31,532 nucleotides of DNA from Candidatus Coprovivens excrementavium (GCA_018711445.1 DVII01000124.1:1-31532); one strand, 5' to 3'. Shown: positions 1,480 through 14,577, counted from the stretch's first letter. Numbers and translations: made by a program. Notes: generated by a model from the letters alone, not told the origin.

Positions 1480-2371
1480 ACGTAATATTGCCAATGCTAT
1501 AAAAAGCATATTTCGTAATTTTAGTTTAAGTGCTGCTTCCATTATTTGTACTACAATTACTTTAATAATTGTTGCTCTAGCTATTATTTTCTCAGCTAAT
1601 GTTAATAATTTTACAAGAGATATTGAAAATACTTTAACTATAATAGTTTTTGTTGACAAAACAGCTACTGAAGAAGATATAAGTTCAATAAGAAGTAAAA
1701 TTTTAGAAATTAAAAATGTCAAAAGTGACGAATTAATCTTTAAAGATAAAGAAGAGATTAAAGAAGAAACAATGAAAAACACAGATAAAAGTTCATCATT
1801 GTATTCTATTATGGAAAATTGGACAGAAGAAACAAATCCATTAGAATCAGAATTTATTATATCTGTCAAAAATGTTGAAGACTTAGAAGAAACAGCTACT
1901 ACTTTAGAAAAAATAGAAAAGGTAACAAATGTTAAGTATAGTGAAGATGTTGTTGATAATATGATTCCTCTATTTGACGTTGTTGAAAAAGTAACAATTG
2001 TTATAATTATTGGTTTAATTGTTGTCACTACTTTCTTAATTTGTAACACAATAAAATTAACTATCTTCGCTCGTAAAAATGAAATTGAAATAATGCGTCT
2101 AGTAGGAACAAGCAATTTCACTATTAAATTACCATTTGTAATAGAAGGTCTATTTCTAGGAATGATTGGTTCAATAATTCCTATGTTAGCAACAATATGG
2201 GGATATATATTTGCATTTGATAAATTAGAGGGACATTTATTTACAAATTATATAAGAATGATAACTCCAATACCATTTGTCTTTTATACATCTATTGCTT
2301 TGCTAATTATTGGATCATTAGTTGGTATGTTTGGTAGTTATATAACAGTAAGGAAGTATTTAAAGATATGA
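1457..2371 (+). CDS. ftsX: Cell division permease FtsX
   Basis: Four TM segments with a large extracellular loop; RKNEIEIMRLVGTS and PFVIEG motifs; overlaps ftsE. Confidence 0.9.
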   Translation: MKAIRIFRRNIANAIKSIFRNFSLSAASIICTTITLIIVALAIIFSANVNNFTRDIENTLTIIVFVDKTATEEDISSIRSKILEIKNVKSDELIFKDKEEIKEETMKNTDKSSSLYSIMENWTEETNPLESEFIISVKNVEDLEETATTLEKIEKVTNVKYSEDVVDNMIPLFDVVEKVTIVIIIGLIVVTTFLICNTIKLTIFARKNEIEIMRLVGTSNFTIKLPFVIEGLFLGMIGSIIPMLATIWGYIFAFDKLEGHLFTNYIRMITPIPFVFYTSIALLIIGSLVGMFGSYITVRKYLKI

Positions 2372-3588
2372 TAAAGAAATCAAAAAAAATAATTAATCTG
2401 TTTATAATATTTGCTCTTGTTTTTGTTACAACATGTCCATTCAAAGTCAAAGAAGTCAAAGCGGAAAGATTAATCGATTACAAAAATAAAGTAGCAGAAC
2501 TAGAAAGTCAAAAAGCTGAAGCAGATGCTTTAACAAATGAAGCAAAGCAAAATATTGAAAAAAAATCTCAAGCTATAAAAGATGCCAATAACACAATCAT
2601 TCTAAATGAACAACGTGTTGAAGAAGCCAAACAAAAAGTCGCTGAGAGCCAAGAAGAAATAAAAATAAAACAAGAGGAACTAAAAGATGTTCTAGTTTCT
2701 CTTCAATATTCAGATTTAAATCCTGATGAAATATATACTGATTATATTTTTTCAGCCTCAAGTATTTCTGAAATGATGGAAAGACAAGCGGTAGTTGAAC
2801 AAGTAGTAAACTACACCCAAGAACAACTAAATAGTCTAGATGAATTAATTGAAGACAACGAAAAATTACAAGTTAAACTAGCAAATGATAATGTTACTTT
2901 AAATAATTCAATTACTTCGTATGAAACGCAATTAGAAGAACTTCACGAATATGTTGATAAACAAGCTAGTATAGGCATGGGGTTTGCAGATCAAATTAAA
3001 GCTCAAAAAAATATGATTAAACTATTTGAAGAAGCAGGTTGTAAAGATAATGATGATGTAGAAGTTTGTTACTTCTCTAAAATGGAAGGATCTGGCTCAT
3101 TCTCAAGACCATTAACTAAAGGAAAGGTTACTCAGGCATATAATAAAACACATGCCGGTATTGATTTAGGAGGAAATCCTGAAGGAACACCTGTTTATGC
3201 TCCTGCAAGTGGTACAGTAATTTATGTTGCTCGTAAAACATCTTGTGGCGGAAATATTGTTTATATGCATGCTTTAGTTGATGGAAAAAAATATACTGTT
3301 GAAATGGCACATTTATTAAGTATTAAAGTTTCATCAGGACAAAAAGTTAGCAAAGGACAAATAATTGGAACCGTTGGTGGCTACTCAACGTCACATGCTT
3401 TATCTGGTGGCTATGATTATTGTACTTATGGCGCTCACTTGCACTATGCAATATCATATGGTTATTTCTTCTCAGAAAGTGGTAGAACCCAATGGAATAA
3501 ATTTAAAGCTAATACAGGAGCTACTTCAGTACAATCAATCTCTGGTATTAAGAGTAAAAAAGGTTGGAAGTGGACTACAAGAGGATAA
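2368..3588 (+). CDS. Secreted coiled-coil M23 (LytM) metallopeptidase, likely FtsEX-regulated peptidoglycan hydrolase
   Basis: N-terminal signal peptide, long coiled coil, HAGID (HxxxD) and HLH (HxH) Zn motifs; ATGA overlap with the ftsX stop. Confidence 0.85.
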   Translation: MIKKSKKIINLFIIFALVFVTTCPFKVKEVKAERLIDYKNKVAELESQKAEADALTNEAKQNIEKKSQAIKDANNTIILNEQRVEEAKQKVAESQEEIKIKQEELKDVLVSLQYSDLNPDEIYTDYIFSASSISEMMERQAVVEQVVNYTQEQLNSLDELIEDNEKLQVKLANDNVTLNNSITSYETQLEELHEYVDKQASIGMGFADQIKAQKNMIKLFEEAGCKDNDDVEVCYFSKMEGSGSFSRPLTKGKVTQAYNKTHAGIDLGGNPEGTPVYAPASGTVIYVARKTSCGGNIVYMHALVDGKKYTVEMAHLLSIKVSSGQKVSKGQIIGTVGGYSTSHALSGGYDYCTYGAHLHYAISYGYFFSESGRTQWNKFKANTGATSVQSISGIKSKKGWKWTTRG

Positions 3589-3618
3589 GAAGGATAAAAC
3601 CTTCTTTTTTTTCTTTTT
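3587..3618 (+). terminator. Intrinsic terminator of the ftsEX-M23 operon
   Basis: AAGAAGG-ataaaa-CCTTCTT 7-bp stem followed by a T tract immediately at the stop codon. Confidence 0.75.
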
Positions 3619-3620
3619 AT

Positions 3621-3771
3621 ATAATATCGATTTTTGTCGATTTAAATAAAAAAATGTCGAATTTATTTCTTTTTTATCGTAAATTGTTTAATTTTGTCGA
3701 TTTTTGTCGTCCAGTATCTATTTATAATGTATTTAGTTTTATAAAGTCGAAATATGTCGTATTATGTCAAT
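3621..3771 (+). repeat. 10-bp-phased array of Spo0A-box-like heptamers (unit consensus WWWWTGTCGA)
   Basis: Heptamers start at 3625 TATCGAT, 3635 TGTCGAT, 3655 TGTCGAA, 3675 TATCGTA, 3695 TGTCGAT, 3705 TGTCGTC, 3745 AGTCGAA, 3755 TGTCGTA and 3765 TGTCAAT. Weaker copies are at 3685 and 3715. All are in the same register modulo 10. Confidence 0.9.
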
Positions 3772-3806
3772 AGCTTCTTATCTTCTTTTTATGCAGATAA
3801 TATTTG

Positions 3807-3815
3807 TGGTATCAT
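3807..3815 (+). promoter_or_regulatory. Possible extended -10 promoter for yvcK-whiA
   Basis: TG-G-TATCAT about 24 nt upstream of the ATG; poor -35. Confidence 0.35.
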
Positions 3816-3838
3816 AATATTTAAATGGAGGTTTGCAT

Positions 3839-4786
3839 ATGAAAAAAGTAGTTATTTTTGGTGGCGGAAGTGGAATGTCACAATTATTAAAAGGAATGAT
3901 TCAATTTCCTATGGATATAACAGCTGTTGTTAGTATGTCTGATAATGGAACGAGTACAGGGCGTTTGCGTGAAGAATTTTCTATTCCCGCTGTAGGTGAT
4001 ATAACTAAAGTTTTAATGGCTATGTCTACAGAATCAAAGGGTGTTAAAGACTTATTTAATTATCGTTTCAGCAATGATAGTAGTATTGGTAATCATTCTA
4101 TAAAGAATTTGATAATGACTGCATTATTGGAAATGAAAGGGGATTTTGCTCATTCCTTACCAATATTATGTGATTTACTAGATGTTAAAGGTAAACTTCT
4201 TCCTATTACAGAAGACAATGTTGATTTAATTGGAATTACAAAAGAAGGATACGAAATAATAGGTGAGGCTGAGATAACAGAATCAAAAAGAGAGATAGTT
4301 GATCTTAAATATAGTAAAAAAGTCAAAGTTACTCCTAAAGTTTTAGAAGAAATAAAAAAAGCCGATTTAATAATTTTTAGTTCGGGTTCACTTTTAACTA
4401 GCATTTCACCACATATTATTATTCCTGAAATACAAGAAGCTGTTAGAAATTCCAAAGCACGAAAAATGTATATTTGCAATATGCTTACTCAACCAGGTGA
4501 AACTGACGGCTTCAAAGTAAGTGATCATATAAAATATCTTGAAAAATATCTAGGAACAGGAACAATTAATGCAGTTATTGCCAATAACTCAAAGATTCCA
4601 CAAAATATGGCTCTTCTTGCTAAATCAGAAGGTAAAGATCCTGTTGCTATTGATACAAAAGCGTTACAAAATATGGACATAGAGATTTTAGAAGAAAAAT
4701 TATTCAAAGTTGAAGAAGGATATATTAGACATAATTCTCTAAAAACAGCATACTTAATCTTTTCGTATTTAATTGAGGACGAATAA
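3839..4786 (+). CDS. yvcK: YvcK/GlmR (CofD-related) gluconeogenesis morphogenetic factor
   Basis: GGGSG, SDNGTSTGRLREEF, GDI, NHSIKNL, SGSLLTSI and CNMLTQPGETDG motifs; upstream of whiA. Start set at ATG 3839 behind GGAGG. Confidence 0.9.
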   Translation: MKKVVIFGGGSGMSQLLKGMIQFPMDITAVVSMSDNGTSTGRLREEFSIPAVGDITKVLMAMSTESKGVKDLFNYRFSNDSSIGNHSIKNLIMTALLEMKGDFAHSLPILCDLLDVKGKLLPITEDNVDLIGITKEGYEIIGEAEITESKREIVDLKYSKKVKVTPKVLEEIKKADLIIFSSGSLLTSISPHIIIPEIQEAVRNSKARKMYICNMLTQPGETDGFKVSDHIKYLEKYLGTGTINAVIANNSKIPQNMALLAKSEGKDPVAIDTKALQNMDIEILEEKLFKVEEGYIRHNSLKTAYLIFSYLIEDE

Positions 4787-4787
4787 T

Positions 4788-5720
4788 ATGACATTTACTA
4801 CTAGGTTAAAAGAAGAAATAACTAAAAATGAAATATCTCAATTAGAATCGCTTATTGAATTATCAGCATTTATAAGATTTTCTGCTCATTTAAAAAAAGA
4901 TAAAATTGTTCTAATAATGGAAAATGCTTCAGTTGCTCGAAGAATATACAAAGATATAAAAGCAAATTTTGCTGTTAATATAAAAATAACAATTCGTAAT
5001 CAAAAAAGATTTCGTGTTAAACAAATATACATATTAGAAATAAATGAAAAAGTGGATTTTATTTTAGAATCATTAAGTATCCTAAAAAATAATAAAAAGA
5101 TTCTCCCAGAAGAATATTTTATTAATAGTAAAGAAGAAACAATCGCTTTTTTAAAAGGAGCTTTTCTAGCATCTGGTAGTTTAAATGATCCTAGCAAAGC
5201 TGGATATCATTTTGAACTTACTTCATCAACTAAAAAAGAAGGATTGTTTTTATCTCAATTACTAAAGAAATTTGACTTTTCAGCTAAAGTAATAAAACGT
5301 AATAATCATTACATGACATATATAAAAAGTGCTGAAATGATAAGTGAATTAATTCGTTTATTTGGAGCGACAAATTGTTTCTTTTATTTTGAAGATATAC
5401 GTATTTATCGTGATCATAAAAATATGGTTAATCGTTTAAATAACTGTGAAATTGCTAATCAAGAAAAAATTCTGAAATCAGGAATAAAACAATTAAATGA
5501 TATAGCCTATTTAAAAGAGCATGACCTTATAGGACTACTAGATGAAAATGTCCAAGAAGCTATCAAATATCGTGAAGCATATCCTGAAACCTCTCTTCAA
5601 GAATTAGCTGATATCATTTCAACTGAAACTGGTCGAAAAATAGGTAAATCAGGAATCAATCATTATTTTATTAAAGTAAAAAAATTAATTGAAAAACATA
5701 AAGAAAAAAACGCTAAATAG
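4788..5720 (+). CDS. whiA: DNA-binding protein WhiA
   Basis: MTFTTRLKEE start, FLKGAFLASGSLNDP-GYHFE, NRLNNCEIAN and SLQELAD...GKSGINH HTH region. Start set at ATG 4788 behind GAGGA. Confidence 0.92.
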   Translation: MTFTTRLKEEITKNEISQLESLIELSAFIRFSAHLKKDKIVLIMENASVARRIYKDIKANFAVNIKITIRNQKRFRVKQIYILEINEKVDFILESLSILKNNKKILPEEYFINSKEETIAFLKGAFLASGSLNDPSKAGYHFELTSSTKKEGLFLSQLLKKFDFSAKVIKRNNHYMTYIKSAEMISELIRLFGATNCFFYFEDIRIYRDHKNMVNRLNNCEIANQEKILKSGIKQLNDIAYLKEHDLIGLLDENVQEAIKYREAYPETSLQELADIISTETGRKIGKSGINHYFIKVKKLIEKHKEKNAK

Positions 5721-11951: not shown

Positions 11952-11958
11952 GTCGACA
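11952..11958 (-). promoter_or_regulatory. 0A-box-like site upstream of the spo0A-like gene
   Basis: TGTCGAC on the minus strand (6/7 match to TGTCGAA), 57 bp upstream of the ATG. Confidence 0.35.
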
Positions 11959-12015: not shown

Positions 12016-12780
12016 ATGAATATGAAAAATAATATGAATACATTGGTAGTATGTAGTAAAGAAGAATCGAACAAACTTAAACAAGAAATAGCAGTTTTAA
12101 CAACTGAAATAACTATTAAATACACAGCGGACAATTACAAAGATGCATTGCAAATCATTAATAATTCTGATGATTTGGATGCAATATTAATTGATGGTAC
12201 AATGCCTGGAGAAAATATTTTGAATTTATTAACAAATTATAAAAATGAAATATTATTATCTAGAACTATCATCATTGATAACATTAAATTAGATTGCTAT
12301 AATTTATCAGCATCTAACTATCAAATATTCAATGTTATTCCTAAAAATTACAAAATAAATGAATTGATTATCTCTTTAAAAGAAATAAAGAATAAACAAG
12401 AAAAATATAATTTCCACAAGATATCAATCTATGATAAAGTAGCTGAGATATTAAAAAAATTAGGTATTGCTCCTGATAAAAATGGATTTCATTATTTAAG
12501 AAAAGCAATTTATGAATGTTACTTGGAGCCTTCATTATTAACTTCTATTACTAAAGAAATATATCCTATGTTAGCTGCATCTTTTTCTAAAAAAGAAAGT
12601 TGTATCGAGAGGTCAATTAGAAGTGCAATTGAAACAGGTTGGGATCGTGGAAATTACGAATATTCTAATGAATTATTTTCCAATTGTGTAGATTACTATA
12701 AAACAAAGCCAACTAATGGAGAATTTATAGCTATTATAGTTGACAAAATAATGATGGAAGAAGGAAGAACAATTTATTAA
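12016..12780 (+). CDS. spo0A: Spo0A-family transcription factor with an atypical receiver domain
   Basis: C-terminal LGI-PDKNGFHYLRKAI...ITKEIYP...ERSIRSAIE..W.RGN...KPTNGEFIA matches the Spo0A effector domain; N-terminus has LIDGTMP at the receiver beta3 position. Confidence 0.85.
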   Translation: MNMKNNMNTLVVCSKEESNKLKQEIAVLTTEITIKYTADNYKDALQIINNSDDLDAILIDGTMPGENILNLLTNYKNEILLSRTIIIDNIKLDCYNLSASNYQIFNVIPKNYKINELIISLKEIKNKQEKYNFHKISIYDKVAEILKKLGIAPDKNGFHYLRKAIYECYLEPSLLTSITKEIYPMLAASFSKKESCIERSIRSAIETGWDRGNYEYSNELFSNCVDYYKTKPTNGEFIAIIVDKIMMEEGRTIY

Positions 12781-14448: not shown

Positions 14449-14577
14449 CGTATGACTGCTTAGATGTGTGAGGTTGCCGATACACTAGGATGAGTTGTTT
14501 ATATTTTATCTTAAATTTATCGGGGAATTCATTACGGAGCAAGTCTATACTAGATATAGACGAAGGGAGGACATAAA
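14449..14577 (+). ncRNA. Structured 5' leader of rpsJ (candidate r-protein leader)
   Basis: About 130-nt leader, more GC-rich than its flanks. Contains GAGGTTGCCGATACAC, ACGGAG and a GTCTATA-ctaga-TATAGAC hairpin abutting the SD; resembles Bacilli rpsJ leaders as recalled. Confidence 0.55.

Follow-up and report, generated by a model that had tools for sequence, protein, structure and literature searches.

A 10-bp-phased array of Spo0A-box-like words upstream of yvcK-whiA is a candidate platform for Spo0A in Candidatus Coprovivens excrementavium

Long one-strand arrays of short words spaced near the helical repeat imply cooperative, oligomeric occupancy. Plasmid R1 parC with its ParR protein, MraZ boxes and the low-affinity DnaA arrays of oriC are long one-strand arrays of short words, as is the array described here; they differ from it in their words and proteins, in the 11-bp period of the parC and DnaA arrays, and in context, as no partition gene, mraZ or origin lies at our locus. 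Closer counterparts are the tandem 0A boxes of the Bacillus subtilis abrB promoter (structure 1LQ1), of phage phi29 and Nf promoters and of the phi29 origins, in which a TGTCGAA-type word recurs on one strand every 10 bp, perfect and imperfect copies being mixed. In C. difficile, G2, C4 and G5 of TGTCGAA are the bases that Spo0A touches, and one substitution lowers affinity about 10-fold (PMC3485338). Even a box with up to 3 mismatches is protected if a good box is 3 bp away, and the phi29 origins carry four consecutive 0A boxes (PMC2731898). In the literature we found neither a row of more than four 0A boxes nor a report that Spo0A governs yvcK-whiA. The present array shares with these systems a TGTCGAA-type word, the placing on one strand, the 10-bp spacing, the mixture of perfect and imperfect boxes, a spore-forming host and a Spo0A with the same recognition helix. 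Unlike them, it has 15 slots (19 in a sister species) rather than 2 to 4, its core is TGTC with G5 often lost, and it precedes a gene pair that has not been described as a Spo0A target.

The window, by which we mean the whole stretch of 31,532 nucleotides that was analysed, belongs to an assembly of 2.22 Mb with 28% G+C in 345 contigs (G000). By direct reading and genome scans, the array occupies 3625..3774 on the + strand and divides into 15 ten-base slots, 11 of them with a W-R-T-C-N-W word. Nine boxes are clear (3625 TATCGA, 3635 TGTCGA, 3655 TGTCGAA, 3675 TATCGT, 3695 TGTCGA, 3705 TGTCGT, 3745 AGTCGA, 3755 TGTCGT and 3765 TGTCAA) and two are weak (3685 TGTTTA and 3715 TATCTA). Every box lies on the + strand and starts at a position equal to 5 modulo 10, and the four decayed slots (3645, 3665, 3725 and 3735) are still 10 bp long. 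An earlier reading of this DNA, made from the sequence alone, had counted nine clear and two weak same-strand heptamers in this phase, with a perfect TGTCGAA at 3655; direct reading agrees on both, and the heptamer at 3655..3661 (+) is the sole perfect 0A box of the array. An adjacent pair, TGTCGAT and TGTCGTC (3695..3711, +), is set 10 bp apart in an abrB-like tandem geometry, and three consecutive promoter-proximal boxes, AGTCGAA, TGTCGTA and TGTCAAT, occupy 3745..3771 (+). G2, C4 and G5 occur together in six units. The reverse strand of the array reads NCGACA, TGACA or AGACA. Within the 251-bp spacer between an M23 peptidase gene and yvcK, which is 22.7% G+C, all eight CpGs are part of TCG and lie in one phase. 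An open reading frame of 69 codons traverses the array; the array as a gene was rejected, the counterpart in the sister species being stop-ridden in all frames. An Rfam search of 3400-4000 returned only a chance viral match (E = 0.11).

Upstream of the array lies the last gene of an ftsX-containing unit, encoding an M23 peptidase with a PcsB-type coiled coil (2368..3588, +; Pfam Peptidase_M23 9.4e-19, CC_PcsB). This gene ends in an intrinsic terminator with a 7-pair stem and a T run (3587..3616, +), found in a terminator scan that gave one site against 0.1 expected in shuffles; a metatranscriptome contig that terminates at 3593 is weak evidence for it. The array begins 9 bp past the terminator. 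Downstream, direct reading gave an extended -10 promoter of sigma-A type, TGTGgTATCAT (3805..3815, +), without a good -35, and a ribosome-binding site, GGAGG (3827..3831, +). They serve yvcK, a glmR-type gene of the CofD family (3839..4786, +; Pfam CofD 4.7e-88), and whiA, which overlaps the end of yvcK (4773..5720, +; Pfam WhiA_N, LAGLIDADG_WhiA and HTH_WhiA). The promoter form TRTGnTATnAT is kept in 17 of 19 loci of the genus. The last box (3765) starts exactly 40 bp ahead of the TGTG of the extended -10, which places it at about -57 to -51 relative to the likely transcription start. Pfam matches bear out the gene context given by the sequence-only reading, with yvcK-whiA next to the array and a Spo0A homolog 8 kb off, and point to no other candidate DNA-binding protein among the neighbouring genes.

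The phased run is unique in its genome. The whole 2.22-Mb assembly holds no second site with at least four in-phase RTCGW words within 100 bp, and within 150 bp the in-phase count is 8 in the array against at most 3 in ten first-order Markov genomes. A further triple of phased WGTC is likewise missing from this genome, which rules out a regulon built on lattices of this kind. TGTCGW itself is not enriched across the window (16 found, 12 expected), and the non-random aspect of the array boxes is their clustering and phase. About 20 perfect 0A boxes lie in intergenic DNA of this small genome.

Among the 27 species genomes of the genus, only the nearest species (G009, YvcK 93% identical) has an array at the yvcK locus. 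It comprises 19 units in perfect 10-bp register, flanked by the same terminator and promoter, and the distance from its last box, TGTCAAT, to the TGTG of the promoter is again 40 bp. When the two loci are aligned by BLASTN, only the array ends match; the interiors differ by exactly 40 bp, or four units. The yvcK spacers of 17 other congeners are short and lack an array, and none was found in 18 metagenomic yvcK relatives (71-79% identical). The expectation of conservation upstream of yvcK was thus borne out for motif and phase in the sister species, but not in the 17 congeners and 18 metagenomic relatives. In six congeners the same promoter position is taken by one TGTCAA or TGTAAA, shifted in L011 to -39 from the usual -40. 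A stricter search of the genus for four GTC in a row returned the sister species and, besides it, a microsatellite of (GTCTT)n in G014 and a chance match in coding sequence of G013.

Contigs of chicken-gut and faecal metagenomes from three further studies span the array, which is therefore not an assembly artefact, and differ from it at 0-4 positions, with no indels. Four spacer SNPs were seen among strains, at 3711, 3732 and 3774 inside the array and at 3777 just beyond it, all of them outside the TGTC core. Public metagenome runs also show the sister form, in which 252 letters replace 217. The organism of the window is an uncultured chicken-gut or faecal one that was detected in runs of at least seven studies, and the sister species with the longer array co-occurs with it in the same samples.

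The single Spo0A homolog of the organism is the candidate reader of the array (12016..12780, +; Spo0A_C 3.3e-32, Response_reg 19.5 bits). Its effector domain is of canonical type and gives a full-length alignment to the Spo0A-DNA structure 1LQ1, and 1FC3 was aligned as well; the recognition helix reads SCIERSIRS against SRVERAIRH in 1LQ1, with E-R..R retained. The receiver domain is divergent, at 19.5 bits against a Pfam cut-off of 30.2, and its phospho-acceptor Asp and its Lys align. The acidic pocket of the receiver appears altered; its activation may be unusual. Of the 27 species, 25 have spo0A, each as one copy that without exception sits about 8 kb from yvcK, and from the presence of SpoIVA above cut-off in 19 of the 27 we infer that the lineage forms spores.

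Single 0A boxes stand at other genes of this genome that recall known Spo0A targets. An inverted 0A-like box, TGTCGAC (11952..11958, -), immediately follows the stop codon of tpiA, leaving about 60 bp to spo0A, and an inverted TGTCGA(N) is kept ahead of spo0A in most congeners, which suggests autoregulation of spo0A despite the gene's place inside a pgk-tpiA cluster. At C130:6746 a perfect TGTCGAA immediately precedes the -35 of a gene for a sigH-like sigma factor of 219 aa (C130:6042-6701, -), an arrangement found in 17 of 20 species; before this gene the sister species has AGTCGAA, a variant that is common in its array too. The sigH-like gene is probably a direct target of Spo0A, as in C. 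difficile, where both sigH and spo0A are direct targets (PMC3485338). Upstream of dnaA, a perfect 0A box (C277:2290, L193) adjoins two canonical DnaA boxes, an arrangement reminiscent of B. subtilis, whose Spo0A binds at oriC. With canonical boxes at these classical Spo0A targets, the Spo0A of the genus very probably reads TGTCGAA.

Other occurrences of the box were of less certain standing. On a 6.5-kb contig (C195:3652-4660; L189, L194), a spoIIAA-like STAS gene has a promoter with a perfect 0A box and is followed by a sigma factor gene. The STAS gene occurs in none of 26 congeners, and the contig represents either contamination of the assembly (estimated at 4%) or lineage-specific retention. 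For these reasons its box was not used as evidence. Tandem box pairs on C10, C179 and C196 adjoin unknown or mobile-element genes.

The geometry of the array, 7-bp boxes 3 bp apart and thus 10 bp head to tail, is the arrangement for which Spo0A binding has been established by experiment. Both the likeness to 0A boxes and this head-to-tail geometry upstream of the yvcK-whiA promoter, which the sequence-only reading had put forward, held up. As in spoIIG- or spoIIE-type sigma-A promoters and in the sigH-like promoter of the genus, the box is oriented with transcription and lies upstream of a weak or absent -35. From box start to -10 the distance is 34 bp in the sigH-like promoter and 45 bp here, about one helical turn more. 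Unlike those promoters, the locus has a proximal box, TGTCAAT, that is not perfect, and a long array in place of one or two distal sites. Spo0A is the best candidate reader, and we consider it an even chance that the array is a cis-regulatory platform for the organism's single Spo0A.

Several observations weigh against Spo0A as the reader. Only one heptamer of the array is perfect, and the best-kept base, T3, falls where the older consensus TGNCGAA has N. What is conserved is TGTC, not CGAA. Furthermore, the 17 congeners and 18 metagenomic relatives that lack the array also have Spo0A. The single proximal TGTCAA or TGTAAA shared with some congeners is a poor 0A box, which makes ancestral control of yvcK by Spo0A uncertain. 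Placement of the boxes on a single face of the DNA holds locally but not over the whole array, as a unit of 10.0 bp against a helical repeat of 10.5 bp rotates the sites by about 0.7 turn over 150 bp. Any filament on such a lattice must therefore overwind the DNA or take a shallow left-handed path.

What has been conserved can be read from the 34 slots of the two species together. T1 is present in 25 of 34, G2 in 26, T3 in 33 and C4 in 27, whereas G5, a base that Spo0A contacts, is found in only 15 of 34 and in 6 of 19 in the sister species alone. There G2 is kept in 17 of 19 units against 6 of 19 for G5 (p = 6e-4, Fisher test). Random A or T fills positions 6-10, and the units have diverged at positions 5-10. 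Third-codon positions of yvcK are only 66% identical between the two species; with a third of them different, neutral sites have turned over. Taking these profiles together, the maintained feature is one TGTC word per 10 bp at a fixed distance to the promoter.

Three other accounts of the array have to be set against a Spo0A platform. It could be a functionless relic, a 10-bp minisatellite that grew by slippage in the unconstrained spacer between terminator and promoter and is now decaying, its likeness to 0A boxes being due to chance or to the seed. Confinement to two sister species, loss of the core in four units of the present species and the many kinds of 10-bp GTC array found across bacteria and archaea would all fit such a history, as would the difference of exactly four units between the species, which means that whole units were gained or lost, a process that preserves phase automatically. 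Yet G2, T3 and C4 persist at 76-97% while positions 5-10 are saturated with change, and in a genome of 28% G+C mutation pressure should have erased G and C first. Not one 1-bp indel has been fixed across 150 bp in the present species or 190 bp in the sister species, homopolymer-rich as the sequence is. The distance from last box to promoter is identical in the two species although about half of the intervening sequence has changed, and strain contigs from three studies show no length polymorphism, with the reservation that contigs can hide rare length variants. The sequence-only reading had named a recent slippage-derived minisatellite as the finding that would speak against function. Tandem Repeats Finder at a score of 30 did not detect the array in the present species, and on the sister array it gave only 66-70% matches at period 10, units being randomised outside TGTC. 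A recent neutral minisatellite is unlikely, given that TGTC is kept while the rest is randomised, that the register is intact and that strains show no indels; the relic account as a whole we hold to be quite improbable. The array might instead act on the promoter by its structure and need no regulator of its own: phased TG steps and T-tracts would make the DNA curved or anisotropically bendable, and so stimulate the extended -10 or wrap RNA polymerase. Upstream curved DNA enhances promoters in A+T-rich Gram-positives, and the promoter here lacks a -35. In a wedge model, whose numbers are approximate and indicative only, the array of the present species is among the 2% most curved of 150-bp intergenic windows and beyond 99% of its own shuffles. 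By the same model, however, the sister array, though longer and better kept, shows no more than moderate curvature, with a ratio of 0.83-0.87 that falls near the 7th percentile of its shuffles. Moreover, the orientation of A- and T-tracts varies among units while G2 and C4 are kept, and it is tracts that curvature needs. A purely structural role we likewise hold to be quite improbable.

The third account accepts a reader of TGTC but assigns it to another protein, either a non-canonical WhiA acting on its own operon or an oligomerising or DNA-wrapping regulator or nucleoid protein. The selected core is precisely TGTC, or GACA on the other strand, and on the reverse strand nearly all units have A or T after GACA. 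The same GACA core belongs to WhiA operators, which are GACAC in Streptomyces and GAYACRCY with GTTGT at rpsJ in Mollicutes and Firmicutes, and the array stands upstream of the operon that encodes WhiA. The helix-turn-helix of WhiA makes its base-specific contacts mostly to the GACA of GACAC, in imitation of the way sigma region 4 reads TTGACA (PMC10243135), WhiA is autoregulated in Streptomyces (PMC3781837), and that of M. gallisepticum can coat long DNA non-specifically (PMC11701221). The window itself, however, holds a canonical WhiA site in the rpsJ (S10) leader (14479..14498, +), with the core GATACACT and the auxiliary GTTGT 7 bp downstream, which lies downstream of a TTGCAT-17-TATAAT promoter. 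It matches the M. gallisepticum site, whose core GAYACRCY with GTTGT is that of Firmicutes and Mollicutes (PMC11701221); of 24 congeners, all have the core and 22 the auxiliary motif, and this standard word is most likely what the host WhiA reads. The array units fit only about 5 of 8 core positions and never read GACAC, the CRCY half (the 3' half of the core) being missing from all of them, and WhiA binding is sensitive to single core substitutions (PMC11701221). WhiA also binds singly, each monomer covering about 34 bp at an isolated site, a footprint at odds with a 10-bp lattice, and it is present in all congeners while the array is in only two. The case that the sequence-only reading had made against WhiA, from reverse-strand GACAA and GACAT in place of GACAC, is thus strengthened by a canonical site of which the array has only the GACA part. 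For another reader of TGTC, the gene neighbourhood offered no other candidate protein. All told, we regard a reader of TGTC other than Spo0A as unlikely.

Some further readers were ruled out by inspection. OmpR/WalR-type operators consist of TGTWAH hexamers repeated at 11 bp; the array has a period of exactly 10 bp and C at position 4 in 27 of 34 units. A cluster of DnaA boxes was rejected on the ground that the units are without a CCACA core and that true boxes in the genome (C277) are canonical TTATCCACA. WalR, PhoB, DnaA and MraZ-type sites are each excluded by period or by core sequence.

To place the array among other genomes, we searched 185,579 species genomes for runs of five GTC words spaced by 10 bp and set among A/T; the 110 loci obtained fall into several unrelated classes. 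Among the matches labelled as Clostridia, 5 of 7 have TGTCG(A/T) units (Ruminococcus, Anaerovoracaceae, Catenibacillus, Mageeibacillus and Oscillospiraceae), whereas such units are rare among roughly 70 labelled matches of other phyla. An Oscillospiraceae genome (L076:2617-2680) carries six phased boxes at -62 to -120 of spo0A, reading TGTCGTTTTT four times, then TGTCGATTAT and TGTCGAACTT, and so does a near-identical second species (L146). Relative to spo0A these boxes are inverted, as is the one box that precedes this gene in the genus studied here, and the four identical units suggest recent slippage. Another Clostridia array adjoins a small histidine kinase gene. Amplified 0A-type boxes are thus recurrent in Spo0A-bearing lineages, in view of these Clostridia arrays and the one at spo0A. 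The statement of the sequence-only reading that no 0A array this long had been described is therefore right for the literature, where four boxes in phi29 are the maximum (PMC2731898), but similar long arrays do exist in other Firmicutes genomes. Arrays of TGTCGA or AGTCGA type at 10 bp are also found in taxa without Spo0A (Spirochaetales, L091; Saccharibacteria, L092).

The remaining classes bear other words. Bathyarchaeia genomes have 5-20 TGTCAAAWWW units, always followed by a conserved stretch of about 50 bp starting TGTATCAACCTGCAA (L050, L064, L067, L082, L107, L118, L144, L148, L150, L154 and L156), and at other loci the mirrored form, TTGCAGGTTG and then AGTCTAAAWA units. The stretch and its units look like one conserved element, either an origin or the end of a mobile element. 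Bacteroidales and Prolixibacteraceae contain many tandem arrays of the 10-mer AGTCATTAAT, and Parachlamydiaceae contain TGTCCATWWW arrays; L051, L053, L094 and L138 are examples from these groups.

If the array is a Spo0A platform, its history and action could be as follows. In the simplest history, a lone proximal box would have been amplified by in-register slippage before the two species parted, and the array would then have been kept by selection on the phased core. Effector domains of Spo0A would line up head to tail as they do on abrB in 1LQ1, each occupying 10 bp. Nucleation would take place on about six good boxes in which G2, C4 and G5 are present (3635, 3655, 3695-3705 and 3745-3755). 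Neighbour contacts would fill the weaker boxes, so that occupancy would climb steeply with active Spo0A. The promoter-proximal Spo0A would touch RNA polymerase at a promoter that has no -35, and yvcK-whiA expression would rise sharply past a Spo0A threshold. In this way yvcK, concerned with UDP-GlcNAc supply for the wall, and whiA, concerned with division and chromosome segregation, would be tied to the decision to sporulate. Since the core promoter is free of boxes, activation is likelier than repression; alternatively, the array may act in repression, in insulation from read-through of the upstream operon or in titration of Spo0A. The ultrasensitive switch, titration sink or chromosome anchor that the sequence-only reading had suggested are speculative.

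Long 10-bp 0A lattices could be a recurrent evolvable device of endospore-formers, in which slippage at a genuine 0A box creates a track for a Spo0A filament that tunes the threshold or cooperativity of a single promoter, here yvcK-whiA and in an Oscillospiraceae genome spo0A; we offer this wider idea tentatively and think it rather doubtful. Under the same idea, such a track could in addition soak up free Spo0A in a genome as small as this one, with its few perfect intergenic boxes, and given the atypical receiver domain, occupancy may depend on the level of Spo0A rather than on its phosphorylation. Should Spo0A polymerise on 15-19 boxes, its known dimer or tetramer mode would be extended to a filament-like one, for which the array provides a compact natural substrate to examine cooperative binding in vitro. 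It would also be a natural case of simple repeat amplification tuning the sensitivity of a promoter to a graded master regulator. For this organism, a Spo0A platform would mean a direct link from sporulation to yvcK/glmR and whiA that is undescribed in model organisms, and the same logic may hold for similar arrays in other gut Firmicutes.
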